Shown here one piece after another: positions 10,965 to 41,200 of a stretch of DNA of 42,135 bases. The number at the start of each line of letters is the position of its first letter. Positions within the stretch are counted from its first letter, which is position 1. The notes beneath the pieces are model-generated. The model did no database searches, was not told where the DNA came from, and worked only from the letters and a program-made list of their open reading frames with translations. Made by a program: the position numbers and the translations under genes. Source of the DNA: a virus; the IMG/VR virus record IMGVR_UViG_3300045988_041082, one strand, 5' to 3'.

Positions 10965-10967
10965 GTG

Positions 10968-11624
10968 ATGATTAAAGACAGTGGAAACAGAACCAACTTT
11001 GAAAGCGGTGCTGTTAGGGATATTCAAAGCGGAAAAGGAAGGTGTGATTTAATGCCCCTGGGTGTTGTTGCTAACCTTATTGATTCTGAAGAAATCAGGG
11101 GAATTTCCATTTTCAAAGATACTGGTGATACTGATTTTCTGTATGCTTGCCTGAAGGAATTCTGCAATGATTCCCCCTTTTTCAGTGCTTATACCATGCT
11201 GCTTGAAGTGGCAAAGCACTTTGAAGAAGGTGCTGAAAAGTATGGTGAAAACAATTGGCAGAAAGGAATTCCAGTTCACAGCTACATTGATTCTGCAATC
11301 AGGCATTTGCTTAGATACTGGAACAATGAAAATGATGAAAGGCATGATAGAGCTTTTTGCTGGAATATCCTTTGTGCAATTTGGACTTGTGAAAACAAGC
11401 CTGAACTGAATGATTTCAGTGTAAAGTGTGCTGAAGATGATTCTGATGATAGAACGGTATTTGAAGTGGTAAGGGCTATTGCAAAGGATTTGGGTATTGA
11501 AGTTCAGTTTGTAGAAGATTATTGCACTAAGTGCATCCACAATGACAAAGAACCAAAGGAATTCCCTTGCAGTGAATGCAGTTCCAAGTTTGATGAAATG
11601 CCTACTAAGTTTGAAAGGAAGTAA
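10968..11624 (+). CDS. Putative nucleotide pyrophosphohydrolase (resembling the phage dATP/dGTP diphosphohydrolase N-terminal domain) with a C-terminal zinc ribbon.
   Basis: GAEKYGENNWQKGIP...DSAIRHLLRYW motif pattern; CTKC...CSEC. The family assignment rests on recall and is tentative. Confidence 0.4.
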   Translation: MIKDSGNRTNFESGAVRDIQSGKGRCDLMPLGVVANLIDSEEIRGISIFKDTGDTDFLYACLKEFCNDSPFFSAYTMLLEVAKHFEEGAEKYGENNWQKGIPVHSYIDSAIRHLLRYWNNENDERHDRAFCWNILCAIWTCENKPELNDFSVKCAEDDSDDRTVFEVVRAIAKDLGIEVQFVEDYCTKCIHNDKEPKEFPCSECSSKFDEMPTKFERK

Positions 11625-11629
11625 TTGAT

Positions 11630-12256
11630 ATGAGAATTATTGAACCAAGTGTTGAAATCTTAACCCCTATTGATGGTGAAGCTATTCTTAAAATGCTTGA
11701 AGCGGTTGGAAGAACTTGTTATAAATCTGAAGATAAGATTCAGGAAGGTTCTGCTGAAAAGTTTATTTCCAACATTGTAAAGCGTGGGCATGAAGCAGTT
11801 ATTGAGCATTACAACATTACAGTAAAGTTTATTTGTGATAGAGGGGTTACACATGAAATTGTAAGGCACAGATTAGCTTCTTATTGCCAAGAATCAACCC
11901 GCTATTGCAATTATGCCAATGATAAATTCAATGGTGAAATCACAGTGATTAAGCCTATGTTCCTTGAAGTTGGAACAGATGGTTGGGAACTTTGGCATGA
12001 TGCTTGTGCTATGGCTGAAAAATTCTATTTTGATTTGCTTGATTTTGGATGTACCCCACAGGAAGCAAGGGCGGTTCTTCCGAACAGCTTAAAAACTGAA
12101 CTTGTTATGACTGCAAACATCAGAGAATTCAGGCACTTCTTCAATCTTAGATGTTCAAAGGCTGCACATCCTCAAATGCGTGAAGTTGCAAATATGCTTC
12201 TTAGAGAATTCAAAGAAAGGATTCCTGTTCTGTTTGATGATATTGAAGGGATGTGA
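11630..12256 (+). CDS. thyX: Flavin-dependent thymidylate synthase ThyX.
   Basis: ThyX signature RHRLASYCQES (RHRx7S); conserved ...NLRCSKAAHPQMREVA region; size about 208 aa. Confidence 0.8.
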   Translation: MRIIEPSVEILTPIDGEAILKMLEAVGRTCYKSEDKIQEGSAEKFISNIVKRGHEAVIEHYNITVKFICDRGVTHEIVRHRLASYCQESTRYCNYANDKFNGEITVIKPMFLEVGTDGWELWHDACAMAEKFYFDLLDFGCTPQEARAVLPNSLKTELVMTANIREFRHFFNLRCSKAAHPQMREVANMLLREFKERIPVLFDDIEGM

Positions 12257-24489: not shown

Positions 24490-24678
24490 ATGGCTAAAGC
24501 TGATACTGCTGAAGTAAAGGCTACTAAGGTAACTTTTGCAAAGGCAAAGATTCTTACATTCCAGCGTTATAGAAATAGGGTTGACCTTTTAACTGTATTG
24601 CTGGATGAAAACAAAGCTTATACCACTGATGAAGTGGATGCTTTGATTGAAAAATTTATGAAAGGTAAGGTGAAATAA
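24490..24678 (+). CDS. Hypothetical protein (62 aa).
   Basis: ORF with SD AAGGAAGGTGA. Confidence 0.4.
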   Translation: MAKADTAEVKATKVTFAKAKILTFQRYRNRVDLLTVLLDENKAYTTDEVDALIEKFMKGKVK

Positions 24679-24680
24679 GA

Positions 24681-26021
24681 ATGGCACTTGGTGGCGGTGT
24701 GTTTGTTACACAGAATAAAGTTCTTCCTGGTTCTTACATTAACTTTGTAAGTGCTTCTGCTGCTTCTGCAACCCTTTCTGATAGGGGTGTTGCTGCATTC
24801 CCCATTGTTCTTTCTTGGGGTGCAGATGGCAAGGTATTTACTGTTACTGCTGAAGAATTTCAGAAGGATTCTTTGAAAATTTTTGGCTATCCTTATACTG
24901 CTGATGAACTGGCTGGGCTTCGTGATTTGTTCCTGAATATCAAAGCTTGCCATTTCTACAAGCTGAACAGTGGTGGTGCAAAGGCTTCTTGTACTTTTGC
25001 AACTGCTAAACATCCTGGTGTTCGTGGTAATACTATCATGATTGCCATTTCTGCAAGTGAGGGAAGCACTGCTGAAAAACCTATTTGGGATGTTGTTACA
25101 TTCTTTGATGGTGTTCAGGTAGATGAACAGCTTGCAATTGAAAATGCTGCTGACCTTCAGGATAATGATTATGTGGTTTGGGTTGATACTGCAACCCTTG
25201 CTACTACTGCGGGAACTTATTGCAGTGGTGGCACTGATGGTAATACCCTTGATGCCAACTATCAAAGCTTTCTTGATGCAATTGAAAGCTATTCCTTCAA
25301 CACTGTTGGAACTATTTCTAAGGATGATACCATTAAACAGCTTTTCGCAACTTGGACTAAAAGAATGCGTGATGAAGTTGGTATTAAGTTCCAGTGTGTT
25401 CTTTACAAGTATGCTGATGCAGATTTTGAAGGTGTTATTTCTGTTGAAAACAAGCTGGTTGGTGAAGTTGATGCAGAGGAAGGCAACACTGAAACTGCAA
25501 GCCTTGTATATTGGGTAACTGGTGCTGAAGCTGGTTGTGAAGTGAATAAGAGTTTGACCAATGCAACCTATACTGGTGAATTTGATGTTGATGTTTCTTA
25601 TACACAGATGCAACTTGAAGCAGCTATTAAGGCTGGTAAGCTTATCTTCCATCAGGTAAATGATACTGTTAGAATCCTTGAAGATATTAACACCTTCATT
25701 TCCGTTACTGATGGCAAGAGTGCTGATTTTAGTTCCAATCAGACCATGCGAGTTCTTGACCAAATTGGAAATGATATTGCTTCCCTGTTCAATACTAAGT
25801 ATTTGGGCAAAGTTCCTAATGATAATGCTGGTAGAATTTCCTTGTGGAATGATATTGTGAAGCATCACCAAGAACTTGAAGCAATCAGAGCAATTGAGAA
25901 CTTCGAACCTGACAGATTGACTGTTGTAAAGGGTGATACCAAAAAGGCGGTTGTGGTTACAGACTATGTAACCCCTATTAATGCTATGGCACAGCTTTAT
26001 ATGACAGTTATTGTTGAGTAA
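24681..26021 (+). CDS. Contractile tail sheath protein (XkdK-like).
   Basis: MALGGGVFVTQNKVLPGSYINFVSA N-terminus typical of Firmicutes myophage sheaths; 446 aa. The antisense 530-aa ORF is spurious. Confidence 0.85.
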   Translation: MALGGGVFVTQNKVLPGSYINFVSASAASATLSDRGVAAFPIVLSWGADGKVFTVTAEEFQKDSLKIFGYPYTADELAGLRDLFLNIKACHFYKLNSGGAKASCTFATAKHPGVRGNTIMIAISASEGSTAEKPIWDVVTFFDGVQVDEQLAIENAADLQDNDYVVWVDTATLATTAGTYCSGGTDGNTLDANYQSFLDAIESYSFNTVGTISKDDTIKQLFATWTKRMRDEVGIKFQCVLYKYADADFEGVISVENKLVGEVDAEEGNTETASLVYWVTGAEAGCEVNKSLTNATYTGEFDVDVSYTQMQLEAAIKAGKLIFHQVNDTVRILEDINTFISVTDGKSADFSSNQTMRVLDQIGNDIASLFNTKYLGKVPNDNAGRISLWNDIVKHHQELEAIRAIENFEPDRLTVVKGDTKKAVVVTDYVTPINAMAQLYMTVIVE

Positions 26022-26040
26022 AGAAAGGGGGATTAAGTAA

Positions 26041-26511
26041 ATGAACAATGTTATGAATGCAAAAGATGCTGTTTCTGCTTCTTTGGCTGAATGCTTTGTA
26101 ACCATTGAAGGGAACAGATATTGTTTCATGCAAGCCATTAACCTTGAAGCTTCCTTTGAGAAAAACAAAAGTGAAGTTCCCATTCTTGGCAAGACTGGTA
26201 AGGGAAACAAAACTACTGGTTGGAAGGGAACTGGTTCTGCAACCTTCCATTACAACACTTCCATCTTCAGGGAATTGATGCTTCGCTATAAGAATACTGG
26301 TGAAGATGTTTACTTTGATATTCAGGTAACTAATGAGGATGCAACTTCTTCTGTTGGTAGGCAGACTGTTATTCTGAAGGATTGCAACATTGATGGCGGT
26401 ATTCTTACAAAGTTTGATGCAGATGCAGAATATCTTGATGAAGATATGGATTTCACCTTTGAGGATTTTGAAATTCCTGAAAAGTTCAGTATGCTTAATG
26501 GCATGATGTAA
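26041..26511 (+). CDS. Tail tube protein (XkdM-like).
   Basis: Position after the sheath gene; 156 aa; SD AAAGGGGGA. Confidence 0.75.
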   Translation: MNNVMNAKDAVSASLAECFVTIEGNRYCFMQAINLEASFEKNKSEVPILGKTGKGNKTTGWKGTGSATFHYNTSIFRELMLRYKNTGEDVYFDIQVTNEDATSSVGRQTVILKDCNIDGGILTKFDADAEYLDEDMDFTFEDFEIPEKFSMLNGMM

Positions 26512-31392: not shown

Positions 31393-31802
31393 TTAGTATG
31401 ATTCCAAATAACCCTGAAAATGAACTGATAAATGATTTTGAGTTTGAGGAAAGACCAACTAACACCTTCAAGCTAAACGATTCATATAATCAGTTATATG
31501 GGTTCACAGATGGGTTGGAAGCAATGAAGCAAGCGATTTACTTGATTCTAAACATTGAAAGGTATGAATACCTGATTTTCAGTTGGAACTATGGTATAGA
31601 ACTTGCTGATTTGTTTGGGCAGCCCATTTCTTATGTTATGGCTGAACTTGAAAGAAGAATCAGTGAAGCACTTCTTCAGGATAGCAGAATAACAAGCGTG
31701 GAAAACTTTGAATTCGATTATAAGAAGAACAAGGTTTTCTGTAAATTTACAGTGGTAACTATTTTTGGTGAAACTGAAATTGAAAAGGTGGTGAATGTGT
31801 AA
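31389..31802 (+). CDS. XkdS-like baseplate protein (DUF2634).
   Basis: Position and size of 137 aa; translationally coupled to its neighbours. Confidence 0.6.
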   Translation: MISMIPNNPENELINDFEFEERPTNTFKLNDSYNQLYGFTDGLEAMKQAIYLILNIERYEYLIFSWNYGIELADLFGQPISYVMAELERRISEALLQDSRITSVENFEFDYKKNKVFCKFTVVTIFGETEIEKVVNV

Positions 31803-32878
31803 TGTATGAAAATGTAACCTATGAAGTGATTCTTGATAGAATGCTTGATAGAGTGCTTGCACAAAATCCAAACATTGATACAAGAGAAGGAAGCATTATT
31901 TATAATGCCCTTGCCCCCGCTGCGGTTGAACTTCAGAATATGTATATTCAGCTTGATACAATCCTGAATGAATCTTTTGCAGATACCCAAACAAGGGATT
32001 ACCTGATTAAAAGGTGTGCTGAAAGGGGTGTAAATGTTGAACCCGCAACCTATGCAATCAGGCAAGGTGAATTTACCCCTTCCACAGTGGAAATTGGAAT
32101 TGGGGCAAGATTTTCTTTGAACCTTTTGAATTATGTTGTAGTTGAAAAAATCAGTGATGGTGTTTACAAGCTTCAGTGTGAAACTGCTGGTTATGATGGC
32201 AATGTGGAAAGCGGTACACTTATCCCCATTGAATACATTGAAGGCTTGCAAACTGCAACACTTACTGAAGTGCTTGTTCCTGGTGAAGATGAAGAAGATA
32301 CAGAGCATTTAAGGCAGCGTTATTTTGATTCACTGGATTCACAAGCCTTTTGTGGAAATATCAAGGACTACAAGGAAAAGACCAATTCCCTCGATGGTGT
32401 TGGTGGTGTGAAGGTTTACCCTGTTTGGAATGGTGGCGGTACAGTTAAACTTGTAATTATCAATTCTGATTTTGACAAGCCTTCTGATGTTCTTATCAAC
32501 AGTGTTCAAACTGCTATTGACCCAACAGGAAATCAGGGAACTGGTGTTGGTATTGCCCCCATTGGGCATATTGTAACAGTGGTTGGATGCGGTGAAACTT
32601 CAGTTGATGTAGCAACTAAGATTACATTCCAAGAAGGTTGGGATTGGGAAGCACTGAAACCTTATGCAGAACAGGCAATTGATGATTATTTCAAGGAACT
32701 TGCTTCTGATTGGGCTTCCCTGGATAACATCATTGTTAGAATCAGTCAAATTGAAATTCGTTTACTGAACCTTACTGGGGTTTTGGATATTGCAGATACA
32801 ACCCTGAATGGTATTGCACATAACCTTACCATTGATGCTGACAATATCCCAATAAGGGGGGAAGTAAGCAATGTATGA
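31802..32878 (+). CDS. Baseplate J-like protein (XkdT-like).
   Basis: 358 aa in the baseplate cluster; N-terminal conserved region typical of the Baseplate_J family. Confidence 0.75.
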   Translation: MYENVTYEVILDRMLDRVLAQNPNIDTREGSIIYNALAPAAVELQNMYIQLDTILNESFADTQTRDYLIKRCAERGVNVEPATYAIRQGEFTPSTVEIGIGARFSLNLLNYVVVEKISDGVYKLQCETAGYDGNVESGTLIPIEYIEGLQTATLTEVLVPGEDEEDTEHLRQRYFDSLDSQAFCGNIKDYKEKTNSLDGVGGVKVYPVWNGGGTVKLVIINSDFDKPSDVLINSVQTAIDPTGNQGTGVGIAPIGHIVTVVGCGETSVDVATKITFQEGWDWEALKPYAEQAIDDYFKELASDWASLDNIIVRISQIEIRLLNLTGVLDIADTTLNGIAHNLTIDADNIPIRGEVSNV

Positions 32879-33425
32879 AAGAACACTGATTGAATATCTC
32901 CCCCACATCATCAGGGATGTAAGAGAATACAAGGCAATTATGAATGATGCTGAACAGCCTGAAATGGTAGATGTTTGGCAAGCGGTTGATGATGCCTTGA
33001 ATGACCAATTCATTGTTGATGCAACTGAAAATGGTGTTTCCAGGTGGGAAAAAATCTTGGGGATTGTTCCACAAGCAACCCTTACTTTGGAAGAAAGAAA
33101 GTTTACCATTCTTACAAGAATCAATGAACAGCTTCCTTTCACTATAAGAACTTTGGAAGAATCCCTAAAATCTTTGTGTGGTGCTGAAGGGTATGTGGTT
33201 CAGCTTCAAGCAAATGAATATATCCTAATTGTAAAGGTTGCATTGGTAGCAAAGCACAATTTTGATGATGTTCAAAGACTGCTTGAAAGAATTGTTCCAG
33301 CTAACATGATTATTCAGCTTAGTATTATCTACAATACCCATGAAGTTCTTGGGGGCTATACCCATCAGGAACTTCACAGATATACACATTATGAATTAAG
33401 AAATGAGGTGCTAACACATGAGTAA
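32871..33425 (+). CDS. XkdU-like tail protein (DUF2313, tail protein I-like).
   Basis: LP..I.......AI...E.........VSRWEKILGI pattern. Confidence 0.65.
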   Translation: MYERTLIEYLPHIIRDVREYKAIMNDAEQPEMVDVWQAVDDALNDQFIVDATENGVSRWEKILGIVPQATLTLEERKFTILTRINEQLPFTIRTLEESLKSLCGAEGYVVQLQANEYILIVKVALVAKHNFDDVQRLLERIVPANMIIQLSIIYNTHEVLGGYTHQELHRYTHYELRNEVLTHE

Positions 33426-35676
33426 AACCCCAAATTACAATTTGAACAAACCCGCACAAACTGATTTTTATGATGTGGATGTTCAAAATGAAAACATGGA
33501 TAAGATTGATACAGCTTTAGCTAATAAAGTTGATAAGGTTGTTGGAAAAGGCTTATCCACAAATGATTACAATGCAACAGACAAAGGAAAAGTTGATAAT
33601 CTTCCTACTGATACTAACACTGAACTTGGTAAGAAAGTTAATAATCAGACCTTTGACAACCATAAGAATGATACTAACATTCATACCACTTCTGCTGAAA
33701 AAGAAAAGTGGAACAAGGGTGTTCAGAAGGTAACTGGTGCTACTACTGGAAATTTATCCGTTTTTGATTCTGAAGGTGGAATTGTTGATTCCAACAAAAA
33801 GCCTTCTGATTTCCTTGGTTCTGCACATGGAACTGCAACCATTATTGGTGAACCTGGGCTTCATGGAATCCGCTATTGGAATGAAAAGCTGGAAGTTCTT
33901 GTTGATGGTGCTTGGAAACAGGCAAGCAGCGGTGTTGGTATTGAAGTTGATGTAACTGTTCCAACTGGTTCTGTTGTTACTGCTACTGATGGTGAAAATG
34001 TGGTAACTGGAACAGCAGTAAACAATGCCCTTAAAGTGGCACTTCCTAACTATGGAAGCTGGGTATTTTCCGCAACCCTTGATGGTGAAACAAGTAATAC
34101 TGTTACCCTGAATTGTGATACTTCCAAGGTTTACAGTGTTACCCTTACTTATTTCACTGCAACAATCAAGGTAACTGCTAAAAGCGGTTCTGTTGTAACC
34201 ATTAAGAAGGGTTCTGTTGTTCAGACTGCTACAAGCACTGGAACTGCAACCTTCACTGTTAAGGAAGCTGGAACATATTCTGTTTATGCTACTTATGATG
34301 GTGTAAATTCCAACACTGTAATTGTAAATGCAACTACAAGCGGTGGAAGCTATACTGCAAGTGTTTCCTTTATTACCCTTACTGTTTCCATCAAAACTGG
34401 TTCAACTGTTGTTGTAACTAAGGGTTCTTATTCTTACAGTAAGGTAAGCACTGGAACAGCAGTGTTCTATTTGCCTGAAACTGGAACTTGGAGTGTAACA
34501 GCTTCGCTTTCAGGTGATACGGCAACTGGAACTATCAGTTGTTCTTCCTACACTGCTTATAGCATTACCCTGAATTACTTCAAAATCTTTGGTGTAAGCA
34601 TTGACCTTACCAATTCTGACCCCGCTTCAGCAGTTACTTACACTGATGATGCTGTTGGAATGACTGCTGGGGGTTCTGCTTGGGATTCTGAACCCATCTT
34701 CAAGGATATTAAGCCTTGCTTGCTTTTGAATGGTGTGGTTCAGAAATACCTTAACAAGAACAACTTTGCACAAGATGAAGATGGGAACAGTGCTGATATT
34801 ACAAGTGGTTCTGCTGGTGATGTAATGGTTGAAATTCCTAAGTGTGGTGTTAAAATTGCTACTTCAGGAAACACATTAACTATTAAGATTACAGATAATC
34901 CAAATGCTACTGCTGATGGCTTCCATTATTATGCACATACAAGGGCAACTGAAGGTGATTGTGATAAGCTTTATATTGGTGCTTATGTTGGTTACAGTTC
35001 CAGTAGTAAGCTTAGAAGTTTAAGCGGAAAATCCCCTACTGTTGATAAGACCATTGGGGCATTTAGAACATTGGCACAAGCTAATGGTGATGGATATGAC
35101 CAAATTTCCTTCTATCCTTTGACCTTGCTTCAGTGCTTGTTCCTTATCCGTTATAAGAACAGGAATTCCCAAACTGCACTTGGTAGGGGTTATGTTGATG
35201 GTTCTGCAAAAACTAACACTGGTGCAACCAATGCAAATGGTATGTACTATGGCAGCACTTCAGGAACAACCCATGTTAAGTTTGCTGGTATTGAAGATTT
35301 TTGGGGGAATATTTTCTATTTCATTGATGGTATTTACAGTGATTCCAGCAGAAATATTCTTACTGCTTTTGATAACTTCAACGATACTGGCAGCGGTTAC
35401 ACAAGTAGAGGACAGGGGGCAACTTCTAATATTGGTAACTATATGAGTAAGCCCCAAGGCACAACTGAAACAGGCTTTATTGCAAAAGAAGTTAATGGTT
35501 CTTCCACAACTCACTTCTGCGATTACGCTACTTTGAACGCTTCCCGCGTGGCTTATTTCGGTGGCTATTGGAATTATGGTGATGTTGCGGGTGCTTTTCG
35601 GCTTGGTGTGTATCTTTCGGCTTCGAGTTCGAGTTCGTATTATGGCGGTCGGCTGATGTATTTGAAGGCATCCTAA
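33418..35676 (+). CDS. Tail fibre / receptor-binding protein and DGR target. It has a conserved phage-fibre N-terminus, repeated beta-sandwich modules, and a C-terminal CLec-like domain that carries the variable repeat.
   Basis: MSKTPNYNLNKPAQTDFYDVDVQNENMDKID N-terminus; internal roughly 40-aa TGT/SGS-rich repeats. The last 149 nt before the stop are homologous to the downstream TR, with A-specific differences. Confidence 0.85.
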   Translation: MSKTPNYNLNKPAQTDFYDVDVQNENMDKIDTALANKVDKVVGKGLSTNDYNATDKGKVDNLPTDTNTELGKKVNNQTFDNHKNDTNIHTTSAEKEKWNKGVQKVTGATTGNLSVFDSEGGIVDSNKKPSDFLGSAHGTATIIGEPGLHGIRYWNEKLEVLVDGAWKQASSGVGIEVDVTVPTGSVVTATDGENVVTGTAVNNALKVALPNYGSWVFSATLDGETSNTVTLNCDTSKVYSVTLTYFTATIKVTAKSGSVVTIKKGSVVQTATSTGTATFTVKEAGTYSVYATYDGVNSNTVIVNATTSGGSYTASVSFITLTVSIKTGSTVVVTKGSYSYSKVSTGTAVFYLPETGTWSVTASLSGDTATGTISCSSYTAYSITLNYFKIFGVSIDLTNSDPASAVTYTDDAVGMTAGGSAWDSEPIFKDIKPCLLLNGVVQKYLNKNNFAQDEDGNSADITSGSAGDVMVEIPKCGVKIATSGNTLTIKITDNPNATADGFHYYAHTRATEGDCDKLYIGAYVGYSSSSKLRSLSGKSPTVDKTIGAFRTLAQANGDGYDQISFYPLTLLQCLFLIRYKNRNSQTALGRGYVDGSAKTNTGATNANGMYYGSTSGTTHVKFAGIEDFWGNIFYFIDGIYSDSSRNILTAFDNFNDTGSGYTSRGQGATSNIGNYMSKPQGTTETGFIAKEVNGSSTTHFCDYATLNASRVAYFGGYWNYGDVAGAFRLGVYLSASSSSSYYGGRLMYLKAS
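35517..35665 (+). repeat. DGR variable repeat (VR) at the 3' end of the tail-fibre gene.
   Basis: 149-bp gap-free alignment to 35722-35870 with a constant offset of 205 bp; 32 mismatches, 29 of them where the TR has A. Confidence 0.8.
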
Positions 35677-35721
35677 AGCACTAAATTAACAAATATTGGC
35701 AACTAAAGATTAGGAAAGTAC

Positions 35722-35870
35722 AAACGATAACACTAATTTGAACACTTCCCACTTGGCTAATTTCAGTGGCAATTGGAATAATGGTGATAATGCAGGTACT
35801 TTTCAGCTTAATGTGAATCATTCAGCTTCGAATTCGAATTCGAATTATGGCAGTCAGCAAATGTTTCTGA
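35722..35870 (+). repeat. DGR template repeat (TR), rich in A and AAY codons. The 61-aa ORF 35738..35923 is the TR, not a gene.
   Basis: See VR. The TR retains A at all 29 positions where the VR differs. Its 3' end diverges from the VR (IMH versus IMH*-like). Confidence 0.8.
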
Positions 35871-35872
35871 TT

Positions 35873-35900
35873 GATTGCCCCCGCCTTCCATTAGGGCGGG
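35873..35900 (+). other. GC-rich hairpin (GCCCCCGCC / GGCGGGGGC) immediately 3' of the TR, in the TR-RT spacer. Possibly a structural element of the DGR RNA.
   Basis: 9-bp GC inverted repeat with an 8-nt loop in otherwise AT-rich DNA. Confidence 0.45.
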
Positions 35901-36041
35901 GGCTTCAATATAAATTGCCTTAGTTGCCATGCCCCTTGGCAAAATATAAAAACCTTTTACACTGTATTAGTAGACCTTGCCCATTCGCAAGGGTTGAAAG
36001 TTCGGTATTAAAAAACATCAAAAGAAAGTTCAGGTGAAACA

Positions 36042-37106
36042 TTGAAAAGATACGGAAACATATATGAAAAAATCTATGATATGGAAAACCTGAAGGAAGC
36101 ACATAGAAACGCAAGGAAAGATAAGCTGTTTTATAAAGAAGTGAAAATGGTTGATTCAAACCCTGAATTTTATCTTACCCAAATTCAGCAGATGCTAAAG
36201 GATAAAACTTACAAGGTAAGCCCTTACACTGTTCAGAAGATATGGGATAAGGACAAAGAAAGGGAATTGATGAAGCTTCCTTACTTCCCTGATAGAATTA
36301 TTCAATGGGCGGTAATGATTCAGATTGAAGATGTATTTCATGAAGTGTTCACAGATTTCACTTGTGCATCCTTAAGGAATCGTGGAATCCATAAAGCTTC
36401 TAAACTGCTTACCAAGTACATGAAGGATGTACCAGGAACAACATACTGTTTGAAGATTGATGTTTCTAAATTTTATCCGAACATCAACCATTGTGTATTG
36501 AAGAAGCTTCTTAGAAAGAAATTCAAGGATGCAGATTTGCTTGAATTGTTGGATTTAATCATTGATAGCATCCCTGGTGAAGTAGGTGTTCCAATTGGTT
36601 CATACCTTTCACAATATCTTGCAAACTTTTATCTTTCCTACTTTGACCACTGGTTAAAAGAAGAAATGGGTGTTAAGTATGTAGTAAGATACATGGATGA
36701 TATTGTAATTCTTCATCATTCTAAGGAATTTCTGCATTGGCTGAAAGATAGAATGGATGAATACCTTCAGGGAAACTTGAAGCTGAAAATCAAAGATAAT
36801 TGGCAAGTGTTCCCCACTAATTCAAGGGGTGTTGATTTTGTTGGTTATCGTCATTTTTTCGGTTTTAAGCTTTTGAGAAAGAAAACTTATAAACGCTTCA
36901 GGAAGCGGATGCTTTCTATTGCAAGAAAGATAAGAAAAGGAACATCAATCAGTTATAAAGATTGGTGTTCCTTTAATTCTTACAAAGGTTGGTTAGATTG
37001 GTGTGATTCCTTCAGATTGAAAATGAAGTATGTTGTTCCAATTCAAGCTGCTATGGATGAATATTATCTTTCAAAAATTAAAAGAAAGGCGGTAATGCAA
37101 ACATGA
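36042..37106 (+). CDS. Diversity-generating retroelement reverse transcriptase (Brt-like).
   Basis: N-terminus MKRYGNIYEKIYDMENLKEA parallels BPP-1 Brt; RT motifs PYFPDRIIQWAV, SKFYPNINH, the DGR-specific VGVPIGSYLSQYLANFYL (IGxxxSQ), RYMDDIVIL and NSRGVDFVGYRHF. No maturase or endonuclease domain. TTG start with SD AGGTGA. Confidence 0.9.
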   Translation: MKRYGNIYEKIYDMENLKEAHRNARKDKLFYKEVKMVDSNPEFYLTQIQQMLKDKTYKVSPYTVQKIWDKDKERELMKLPYFPDRIIQWAVMIQIEDVFHEVFTDFTCASLRNRGIHKASKLLTKYMKDVPGTTYCLKIDVSKFYPNINHCVLKKLLRKKFKDADLLELLDLIIDSIPGEVGVPIGSYLSQYLANFYLSYFDHWLKEEMGVKYVVRYMDDIVILHHSKEFLHWLKDRMDEYLQGNLKLKIKDNWQVFPTNSRGVDFVGYRHFFGFKLLRKKTYKRFRKRMLSIARKIRKGTSISYKDWCSFNSYKGWLDWCDSFRLKMKYVVPIQAAMDEYYLSKIKRKAVMQT

Positions 37107-37348
37107 AAGATGTTGGTTATGTAACTGGCAGTGCTGCACAAGCACAAGAATTGGTTATTGGAACTGATGTGGTGTATGTTCATTCTGAAATTACATTGGT
37201 TGAACCTAAAGAGGGTGAAGAAAGACCTTCCCCAATTTACCGTTACCATGAAATTCAGTATGAAAAGAATGAATACATCAAACTGATGGCTGAACAGAAT
37301 AAGGAACTTTCAAACCTTATGAATACTATGTTGGGGGTGAATGAATAA
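37103..37348 (+). CDS. Hypothetical protein (81 aa), in the XkdW/XkdX position.
   Basis: ORF with an ATGA overlap onto the RT stop. Confidence 0.45.
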   Translation: MKDVGYVTGSAAQAQELVIGTDVVYVHSEITLVEPKEGEERPSPIYRYHEIQYEKNEYIKLMAEQNKELSNLMNTMLGVNE

Positions 37349-39898: not shown

Positions 39899-39922
39899 TG
39901 TTACTAACTTGTTACTAACGCT
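39899..39922. repeat. 24-bp direct repeat, copy 2. It overlaps the last codons and stop of int.
   Basis: TGTTACTAACTTGTTACTAACGCT; the int C-terminal codons ...LVTS-stop are encoded by its reverse complement. Confidence 0.6.
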
Positions 39923-40923
39923 AAAGCATTTTGAAGTTCTTCAAGCGTTTTATGGGTGTAAACCCTTTCACCTACTTCATGGGATTTATGCCCCATCATT
40001 AAATCAATACAAACTTTATTTGCCCCCGCTGAATCAAGCCTACTTCTGAAAGTATGTCTGCATTCGTGGGGTGTGTGTTCCTGGTTCAGCTTCTTCATAA
40101 ATTGATTCCAAATGATGTAGTATTGGCTATTTGAAATTTTCTTTCCATTAACGGAAATCAAATATTTGTTTCCTTCTTGAACCCTTGCTTTGACAAAATC
40201 CAAAATCAAAGGGTGGATTGGAACAATTCTATCTTTACCAGCTTTTGTTTTAACCCCGCCTTTAAAGTAAGGTATATCTTCCAGGTTAATCTTTGCAGTT
40301 TCCAAAGAAAGAAGTTCACTGATTCTAAATCCTGAATAAAGCAAAATTAAAATTGTATCTGCATCAGGTTCATCTTTCAGCTTCCAAACATCCTTTATTT
40401 CATCTTCAGTGAAAGGCTTTTTGCTTGAAGGTGGAATTGGTGCTGCATGAATCAGCATTGAATTCATCTTTGTTATTATATCAAGTTCCATAGCGTATTT
40501 ATCAAGTTGCCCCCATAGGTTCTTGATTGCCCCTTGGGTAGAATAACCTTTTCCACAATTATCAATTGATTCTTGCATCATATAAGCCTTGATTTTCTTA
40601 TAGGGCATATCCCAAAGCAACTTGCAGTGATTCATTGCTGATTTGAAGCTGGATGCACTTGATTTAGATATTTTTGGGAAATCCCTTTCAGACCATCTTT
40701 CATACAGTTCTTTCATTGTTATCTTGGATAAATCAATATCATAGGGATTTCTATTGTATTCAGCAAGGGCAATCATTGCTTCTTGCCTTGTTTTGTAATA
40801 TCCAACTGGTTTATAGATTGGTTGCCCTTTTTCATTCCATCCAACTGTTTTTCTTGCACAGAAGGGATTTCTTCTATTACCTGAAAGCTTTACAACTGAA
40901 CCATACCCATTAGGATTTTTCAA
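39904..40923 (-). CDS. int: Tyrosine integrase (phage integrase family, AP2-like N-terminal arm-binding domain).
   Basis: N-terminal NPNGYGSVVKLSGNRRNPFCARKTV...YYKTRQEAMIALAEYN; catalytic HECRHTFRS...GH..H...Y (R-H-R-Y family). Likely TTG start at 40923 with SD AAGAAGGGA. The ORF-track start 40977 lies inside the CTTGAACAA repeats. Confidence 0.9.
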   Translation of the reverse strand: MKNPNGYGSVVKLSGNRRNPFCARKTVGWNEKGQPIYKPVGYYKTRQEAMIALAEYNRNPYDIDLSKITMKELYERWSERDFPKISKSSASSFKSAMNHCKLLWDMPYKKIKAYMMQESIDNCGKGYSTQGAIKNLWGQLDKYAMELDIITKMNSMLIHAAPIPPSSKKPFTEDEIKDVWKLKDEPDADTILILLYSGFRISELLSLETAKINLEDIPYFKGGVKTKAGKDRIVPIHPLILDFVKARVQEGNKYLISVNGKKISNSQYYIIWNQFMKKLNQEHTPHECRHTFRSRLDSAGANKVCIDLMMGHKSHEVGERVYTHKTLEELQNALALVTS

Positions 40924-40924
40924 G

Positions 40925-41200
40925 AAATCACATCCCTTCTTTAACTTGCTTGAACAACCTTGAACAACCTTGAACAAGCTTTTTAGTTCTGAAAACCCTT
41001 GAAAACCCTTGAAAACAAAGGCTTTTTTAAGTTGCTGCTAACTTGCTTGTTTAAGATGTTCAAGGTGTTACGCATTTTCTATTTACTCAAATATTTTGAT
41101 GTAATCTAAAAAAAAAATATAAGAAGAAAAAAAATCTAAAATATTTAAGTATAAGGAAATACCTTGAACATCTTAAACACCTTGAACAAATTACAGAGTA
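40925..41200. repeat. Repeat-rich noncoding region B, homologous to region A. It holds three tandem CTTGAACAAC decamers (10-bp period) abutting the int start, two tandem AAAACCCTTG units plus AAAACAAAGGCTTTTTT, an inverted GATGTTCAAGGTGTT, an A-tract core, and two CCTTGAACA copies at its right end.
   Basis: The block 41106-41190 aligns with 14247-14300 (CTAAAATAT.TAAGTATA.AG.AAATACCTTGAACA...CCTTGAACA). The block 40996-41032 aligns with 14120-14146. Confidence 0.7.

Follow-up and report, generated by a model that had tools for sequence, protein, structure and literature searches.

We analysed a 42,135-nt stretch of viral DNA, IMG/VR record IMGVR_UViG_3300045988_041082 (the window, meaning the whole of this stretch), and found in it a diversity-generating retroelement (DGR) that we hold with high confidence to be functional. 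It consists of a target gene ending in a variable repeat (VR), a template repeat (TR), a spacer RNA and a reverse transcriptase (RT), has no accessory gene, and belongs to a temperate, contractile-tailed phage of the human gut. A DGR had been proposed at this locus from the letters alone (the sequence-only reading), and the proposal is supported by the bias of the repeats, a Brt-like RT, the position of the target and the activity of the VR. Gut phages whose tail fibres are diversified by a DGR are well documented, and what is new here is modest: population data that directly show activity, a place for the Rfam motif RT-17, and an RNA layout like that of Bordetella phage BPP-1 in a cassette without detectable Avd. 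The core of the cassette is made up of the following features, which include a putative initiation of mutagenic homing (IMH) site and its TR counterpart (IMH*):

33418..35676, + strand: tail fibre / receptor-binding protein, 752 aa (phrog_5302 'tail protein', 1.1e-69)
35520..35665, + strand: VR; between-strain variation confined to 35524-35642 (aa 703-742)
35645..35665, + strand: putative IMH at the VR 3' end; invariant in all alleles read, putative function by analogy with BPP-1 (PMC5758913)
35725..35870, + strand: TR; IMH* at about 35850-35870
36042..37106, + strand: DGR RT, 354 aa (RVT_1 5e-19 in Pfam; phrog_1423 5.5e-121)

In the window sequence, an ungapped direct repeat links 35520-35665 to 35725-35870; the two copies are offset by 205 nt and share 80% identity. 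The sequence-only reading had given the repeat a span of 149 nt (35517-35665 against 35722-35870) and had described its mismatches as adenine-specific. Realignment of this span, tabulated by TR base, gave 32 mismatches, of which 29 had adenine in the TR (binomial p = 4.9e-12, given 47 A per 149 TR nt), with G in the VR at 17 of these sites, T at 10 and C at 2. The alignment without gaps and the 205-nt offset were thus reproduced, while the first three positions of the span (35517-35519) probably lie outside the true repeat. All three non-adenine mismatches had been assigned to the 3' end, which is correct for 35660 and 35662 but not for 35548, an internal position with G in the VR against T in the TR. 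Since three relatives (L001, L104 and L105) hold the TR base at 35548, the G is private to the window strain and the mismatch is strain-specific. The VR makes up the last ~50 codons of the fibre open reading frame (ORF), with 11 nt from its end to the fibre stop codon (35674-35676). The TR lies in non-coding DNA, starting 48 nt past the stop; an earlier figure of 57 nt was wrong, being 45 nt on that reading's own coordinates. The VR therefore sits in a coding target, and the TR is an invariant non-coding store. Searches for exact TR matches returned none in the metagenome collection and, in IMG/VR, just the three already found.

We then compared the cassette among closely related contigs. The RT protein was 100% identical on 13 contigs from human-gut metagenomes. 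Contig L103 equalled the window over its entire 9,065 nt, and contigs L104, L105 and L106 were 99.3-99.8% identical to the window, from which they differed as follows:

L104: 14 substitutions over ~9 kb, 13 of them in the VR (149 nt), 12 at TR-adenine sites
L105: 17 substitutions, 17 in the VR, 15 at TR-adenine sites
L106: 10 substitutions, 10 in the VR, 9 at TR-adenine sites

When these three contigs were pooled, 36 of the 40 VR substitutions fell at TR adenines, and a single substitution lay outside the VR in the ~20 kb compared (Fisher p for concentration in the VR, 5e-23 for L104 and 7e-28 for L105). The TR was the same in 7 independent contigs (including L001, L002 and L103-L106), whose VRs differed from that of the window except in L103. 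The two IMG/VR contigs in this set, L001 and L002 (93-94% nt identity overall), had VRs that differed at 15 positions, 14 of them TR adenines. With 0-1 substitutions outside the VR over 5-9 kb and 10-17 inside, the changes must stem from very recent events. Near-identical genomes from other samples thus differ essentially only at TR-adenine positions of the VR with the TR unchanged, which bears out both the claim that the cassette is active and the expectation of VR heterogeneity at these sites in population data.

Variation was also surveyed across a 90%-identity cluster of the fibre protein (97 members). Fifteen members were read, and all 15 VR peptides were distinct. Among these alleles, positions encoded by AAY in the TR (Y, pyrimidine; n = 13) carried up to 8 residues each, whereas the other 699 residues were mostly biallelic. 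The bases inferred at the AAY sites (A 48%, T 30%, G 18%, C 4%) form a spectrum that resembles the one reported for the BPP-1 RT (bRT) in vitro, where 52% misincorporation was divided into sense-strand T (22%), G (18%) and C (12%) (PMC7826257). A number of contigs ended inside the VR (L105, L106 and L107 of this phage and, among relatives, L007, L008, L011, L013, L014, L028 and L044), as would be expected of an assembler if a sample contained several VR alleles.

The coding design of the TR matches this pattern of variation. Of the 37 adenines in the copied tract, 35 occupy codon positions 1-2, and none can be substituted so as to yield a stop codon. We counted 13 AAY codons, in agreement with the description of the variable sites as mostly AAT/AAC (Asn), and computed from the TR adenines a theoretical repertoire of about 10^20.7 peptides. 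Towards the 3' end, variation stopped at position 35642, and aa 743-751 did not vary across the 15 VR alleles. The stretch 35645-35665 differs from the TR at 6 of 21 positions, four of which are TR adenines (35647, 35651, 35654 and 35655). These four fall in the codons of aa 744-746, which are invariant in 15/15 alleles, so they would represent a fixed IMH/IMH* difference and not ongoing mutagenesis. On the IMH / IMH* concept (PMC5758913), 35645-35665 behaves as a putative IMH and its TR counterpart as a putative IMH*. Some relatives encode a stop codon within the IMH* part of their TRs.

A second group of TR adenines behaved differently from the AAY sites. Six scaffold codons contain a TR adenine (aa 704, 708, 710, 715, 726 and 728; ACT, ACT, CAC, AGT, ACT and CAG, respectively), and the VR has G there in all or nearly all alleles, giving Ala, Ala, Arg, Gly, Ala and Arg. 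This pattern is kept in relatives down to 55% RT identity (L003-L108). Given that G appears at ~18% of free sites, a functional scaffold would be regained roughly once per 10^3 to 10^4.5 events, and most retrohoming products should be non-functional. The retention of the scaffold adenines hints at either a selected function for TR/VR divergence or a large hidden cost of each event.

The RT resembles the BPP-1 enzyme, as had been proposed. Its ORF begins with TTG preceded by AGGTG and encodes IGSYLSQ at aa 185-191, which conforms to the DGR RT signature [I/V/L]GxxxSQ (PMC7826257), and YMDD at aa 217-220. RVT_1 was the sole Pfam match (aa 72-270), the ORF ends ~85 aa later, and no maturase or endonuclease domain was found on the protein, so that both the motifs and the domain content agree with the first description. 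The top Protein Data Bank (PDB) match was 8ub7_A (E = 1.7e-35, full length), which tblastn identified as Brt of BPP-1 (100% identity), with group II RTs at 4e-18 or worse; compared directly, the RT and Brt share 32% identity (E = 8e-41). In the alignment, the equivalents of bRT K29, R74, I181 and Q187 are conserved, and in bRT R74 and I181 promote adenine mutagenesis (PMC7826257). Every NCBIfam match on the RT scored below its family cutoff (TIGR04416 group II RT/maturase, 115 bits against 300; Drt3a, 71 against 200; retron St85, 48 against 235; Drt2, 48 against 390), and Rfam found no group II intron or retron RNA in the window at gathering score. An RT of the group II intron type was rejected on the TIGR04416 score, the lack of an intron RNA and the short tail after RVT_1, and a retron or antiviral (DRT, Abi) RT on the family scores and the lack of a retron RNA in Rfam. 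The nearest genomic relatives of the RT (<=71% identity) were found in Clostridia, Christensenellaceae and Oscillospiraceae metagenome-assembled genomes.

The target gene lies in the tail module, after a baseplate J and a Mu gp48-like gene, and its 3' part encodes a domain shared with other DGR targets of the lineage:

31802-32878: baseplate J, upstream of the fibre gene
32871-33425: Mu gp48-like, directly before the fibre gene
34735..35673, + strand: C-terminal domain (~aa 440-752) common to the lineage's DGR targets; profile homology to TaqVP

No Pfam family was matched by the fibre protein or by 10 diverse homologues. A profile built from 12 diverse DGR targets of the lineage had a single PDB match, 5vf4_A (E = 1.2e-10), which was collinear and spanned the C-terminal VR of that protein (GGxWxxGxxAG...GxR). 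5VF4 is TaqVP, a variable protein with an FGE-type C-type lectin (CLec) fold from a Thermus prophage DGR, with its VR at the very C-terminal end (PMC6328139). TaqVP has 381 aa and a single domain and comes from a DGR that includes Avd, whereas the window fibre has 752 aa with long N-terminal beta-rich repeats, and identity between the two is low. Similarity to Mtd, the BPP-1 target, is weak and limited to the VR. On this profile homology, the fibre tip putatively carries a CLec (FGE-type) fold. A change of VR may result in tropism switching.

Around the TR and in the spacer between TR and RT, we identified a set of RNA elements:

35697..35706, + strand: TGGCAACTAA, upstream strand of a duplex; pairs with 35920-35929 and brackets the TR
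35877..35903, + strand: GC-rich 9-bp stem-loop right after the TR (-15.8 kcal/mol, z = -4.97)
35914..35919, + strand: candidate primer strand AUUGCC; pairs with TR 35849-35854 (GGCAGU)
35920..35929, + strand: TTAGTTGCCA, downstream strand of the duplex; directly abuts the P1 stem-loop
35925..36025, + strand: spacer RNA, Rfam RF03020 (RT-17), 63 bits (gathering score 40.4)

RT-17 was the sole Rfam match in the window and occupies the TR-RT spacer. It comprises a short stem-loop, an A-rich single strand and a further stem-loop in which the UAGUA and GAA loops are conserved, and 10 of its 12 predicted pairs showed compensatory changes (24 loci). Seven relatives also matched RT-17, as do relatives with RT identity of at least ~57%, and the spacer of one more distant relative matched RT-18 (RF03021). 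The Rfam model spans 35925-36025 and does not include the partner strand at 35697-35706, on the other side of the TR. The TR-bracketing duplex that this strand forms is specific to each locus, with a mean of 10.4 contiguous bp for the cognate helix versus 5.5 for non-cognate combinations (26 loci). The stem of the hairpin after the TR covaries in six relatives (L003, L015, L020, L021, L035 and L045) and is absent from other relatives. The possibility that it is an intrinsic terminator was dismissed, as a terminator scan does not call it. For the candidate primer strand, the pairing with the TR is in the same register and shows compensatory changes in 7 close relatives, and its position agrees with where variation ends on the 3' side (TR 35847 is copied, 35852 is not); a role as primer is no more than suggested.

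The order of these elements in the window RNA mirrors that of the BPP-1 DGR RNA. Here, the upstream strand is followed by the TR, the GC stem-loop, a short segment and the downstream strand, after which come the spacer's 4-bp stem-loop, an adenosine run, a single-stranded stretch and a stem-loop. In the cryo-EM structure of the BPP-1 DGR RNA, the avd:Sp 'cPRT Stop' duplex is followed by a stem-loop, A-minor adenosines, a Thumb Ring and a bRT-binding stem-loop (bioRxiv 10.1101/2023.10.23.563531); the conservation analysis of that study began from 278 DGRs with Avd homologues (bioRxiv 10.1101/2023.10.23.563531). The GC stem-loop after our TR takes the place of the Avd-binding stem-loop in Avd-containing DGR RNAs, Avd being undetected here. 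Weinberg et al. 2017 assigned their RT-10 motif to the spacer between TR and RT of BPP-1 and raised the speculation that further DGRs are served by other motifs of the RT series (PMC5737381). We found that RF03022 (Phage_DGR) matches the BPP-1 spacer, and that RT-17 and RT-18 occupy exactly this position in DGRs with A-biased VR/TR pairs. The speculated DGR role is borne out for RT-17 by the window locus and its relatives, and this orphan Rfam motif gains a biological context as a DGR spacer RNA.

Other parts of the cassette likewise recall the BPP-1 DGR (mtd-avd-TR-brt). In both, the VR ends the gene of a receptor-binding tail protein and the TR stands just before the RT; both have adenine-specific mismatches, an AAY codon design and an RT with IGxxxSQ and YMDD; both place a structured RNA in the TR-RT spacer (RF03022 in BPP-1, RF03020 here); and both cassettes lie between tail fibre genes and lysis genes. 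They differ in that a 387-nt avd stands in BPP-1 where the window has the 48 nt from fibre stop to TR, which leaves no room for this gene. They also differ in their hosts and virions, BPP-1 being a podovirus of Bordetella and the window phage a myovirus whose host is a low-GC gut bacterium, probably one of the Clostridia. The window further has a GC hairpin after the TR and no GC-rich inverted repeat after the VR, the opposite of the rule for BPP-1 DNA. The architecture matches that of the Avd-lacking DGRs surveyed by Wu et al. 2018 (PMC5758913), which share the TR-RT core, an adjacent upstream target and the lack of an accessory gene, whereas the RNA elements of the window are not described in that survey. 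Among isolated phages, the closest RT (55% identity) was that of Psychrobacillus phage Perkons (MT325768, ORF176/ORF175, L108), which likewise runs VR-TR-RT, has adenine in the TR at every mismatch (32 of 32) and brackets its TR with a duplex of 16 bp; it differs in being a 137-kb Antarctic soil phage with a target of just 354 aa. The Perkons record annotates the RT and no DGR.

From these elements the following mechanism can be proposed. An RNA covering at least 35697-36025 would be transcribed, and the 35697-35706/35920-35929 duplex would close the TR loop beside the RT-17 structure, to be bound by the RT. The RT would copy the TR from ~35848 toward its 5' end, misincorporating opposite adenines only, and the cDNA would replace the fibre-gene VR at 35524-35642, with the IMH at 35645-35665 setting the 3' limit. 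New receptor-binding tips would be the outcome, built from the 13 Asn-coded (AAY) positions and a few single-adenine codons, with ~10^20 possible peptides. In this scheme, cis-priming, the exact start of the cDNA, the retrohoming step and any effect on host range are inferences.

Several observations weigh against this reading, wholly or in part. Avd occurs in 74% of DGRs and is essential in BPP-1. No Avd-like family was found among the window ORFs (Pfam, NCBIfam), and the best phmmer hit to BPP-1 Avd had E = 0.17, so the biochemical model is carried over from BPP-1 by analogy. No GC-rich inverted repeat was found after the VR, where 35640-35725 folds like its shuffles (z = +1.25). The template:primer duplex did not hold up lineage-wide, with cognate pairings averaging 5.4 bp versus 4.8 bp for non-cognate ones and shuffles doing no worse. 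The presence of several VR alleles within one sample is read from contig ends. Two AlphaFold2 runs (30 and 38 sequences) gave mean pLDDT (predicted local distance difference test) values of 59 and 40, with the C-terminal domain and VR below 50. With models of such low confidence, the claim of a CLec-like tip stands as one of sequence-profile homology to TaqVP (E = 1.2e-10). Set beside the first two of these points are the findings that Avd is not universal, with TR-RT units lacking accessory genes (Architecture A) making up 75 of 372 DGRs (PMC5758913), that one RT lineage lacks avd and has been proposed to undergo Avd-independent mutagenic homing (Wu et al. 2018, PMC5758913), and that GC-rich inverted repeats downstream of VR/IMH are present in 34% of DGRs (PMC5758913). 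In at least 50 related loci, we saw the same tight VR-TR-RT order with mismatches nearly all at adenines. Of the earlier phrase 'complete, apparently active' cassette, the second half is carried by the VR population data, while 'complete' needs qualifying in view of the undetected Avd.

These points bear on three other explanations. A relic, in which a once functional cassette has since lost its activity and left the VR/TR differences as fossils, would fit the failure to find Avd in the window and the decayed or RT-less cassettes of some relatives (described below). It is very improbable nonetheless, as the RT ORF is intact, has all catalytic motifs and is the same in all 13 contigs, and as 36 of 40 VR substitutions at TR adenines among near-identical genomes require very recent events. 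The same adenine restriction bears on the idea that VR diversity arises without reverse transcription, by recombination among alleles or by mutation under diversifying selection, with the RT belonging to some other system. Receptor-binding tips are commonly under diversifying selection, and the RT does have sub-threshold NCBIfam matches to group II RT/maturase, Drt3a and retron St85. Selection or recombination would not, however, confine changes to sites that have adenine in a nearby non-coding copy, nor leave the TR invariant while the VR varies; and the RT reaches no family cutoff, matches Brt with an E-value ~17 orders of magnitude below those for group II RTs, has no group II intron or retron RNA beside it in Rfam at gathering score, and is accompanied by A-biased VR/TR pairs throughout the lineage. 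We give this explanation almost no credence. What the diversified protein binds is a separate matter. The DGR could be active on a target that does not bind a host receptor and instead recognises mucus glycans or a non-host surface, with no tropism switching. The function of the fibre is assigned from gene position, with no Pfam family and no known host or receptor, and a CBM_5_12 carbohydrate-binding protein is encoded among the downstream genes. We consider this unlikely, because the gene belongs to a contractile-tail module, where baseplate J and gp48 immediately precede it, is matched by a tail protein family in PHROG and has a variable domain related to TaqVP and Mtd, both of them phage or prophage DGR proteins. 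The reading we prefer remains an active DGR that acts on a receptor-binding fibre.

If the DGR is taken as such, its lineage may tentatively be viewed as one in which RNA does the work that Avd does in BPP-1, RT-17 is the RNA of a one-RT-one-RNA DGR core, and the scaffold adenines are selected or costly; we regard this as possible though doubtful. If true, RT-17 would define a protein-minimal DGR core. The cassette is a compact (~1.4 kb of TR, spacer and RT) and evidently active DGR for which many natural VR alleles exist in public gut metagenomes, and it belongs to a branch without detectable Avd whose mechanism is unstudied, yet which has kept the RNA order of the BPP-1 cryo-EM structure. 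This combination of a BPP-1-like RNA order with no Avd makes it a good candidate for work on Avd's role and for a smaller engineered diversification tool.

Comparison with more distant relatives indicated that the cassette comes and goes as a unit. Three relatives (L130, L132 and L155) still have a TR whose mismatches are all at A, with the RT truncated or lost, and decaying DGRs of this kind, with an RT stub or no RT, were also seen in L121, L162 and L128. In L122, L124, L126, L137 and L168, both TR and RT are absent and the fibre has the same C-terminal domain. From the decayed and RT-less relatives it follows that TR, spacer and RT form a ~1.4-kb module that is gained and lost between the fibre gene and the gene downstream. 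In the window, that downstream gene is:

37103-37348: acidic ORF p81, 81 aa, pI (isoelectric point) 4.7, phrog_18126; overlaps the RT stop codon

p81 follows the RT in most relatives. It was considered as a DGR accessory factor and rejected, since the five RT-less relatives have the fibre gene and then p81, with no TR. It showed no similarity to BPP-1 bbp4 and had no match in isolated phages. We conclude that p81 is a gene of the fibre module and not a DGR component.

The rest of the window is that of a tailed phage. Its further genes code for a tail sheath, tube, XkdN-like chaperone, tape measure, portal and terminase, for lysis and for an integrase; given this gene content, the label of PBSX-like myophage in the sequence-only reading is a fair one. 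The alignment of one relative (L003) wraps from the end of the window to its start, as expected for a whole circularly permuted genome, and 1-42135 thus appears to be a complete, circularly permuted genome of a temperate phage. Sister contigs are 42.1-42.9 kb long. Two 10-nt indels (40949-40958 and 40990-40999) separate L104 and L105 from the window; they map to the 5' end of the integrase gene (39904-40977, - strand) or slightly past it. The integrase is called with 383 aa in L104 and L105 and with 339 aa in L103 and L106.

Two further loci drew our attention. A 530-aa stop-free ORF (24618-26210, - strand) runs antisense over the tail sheath gene (24681-26021, + strand) and has no family match; it is probably not a gene, although it is unusually long for a genome of 37% GC. 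A protein with a dATP/dGTP diphosphohydrolase N-terminal domain (PF18909, 1.7e-17) adjoins ThyX, the pair being encoded at 10965-11624 and 11630-12256. As no PurZ-like family was found among the window ORFs, nothing points to a modified-base pathway, and a link of this dGTP_diPhyd_N ORF to a Z-genome (2-aminoadenine) was set aside.

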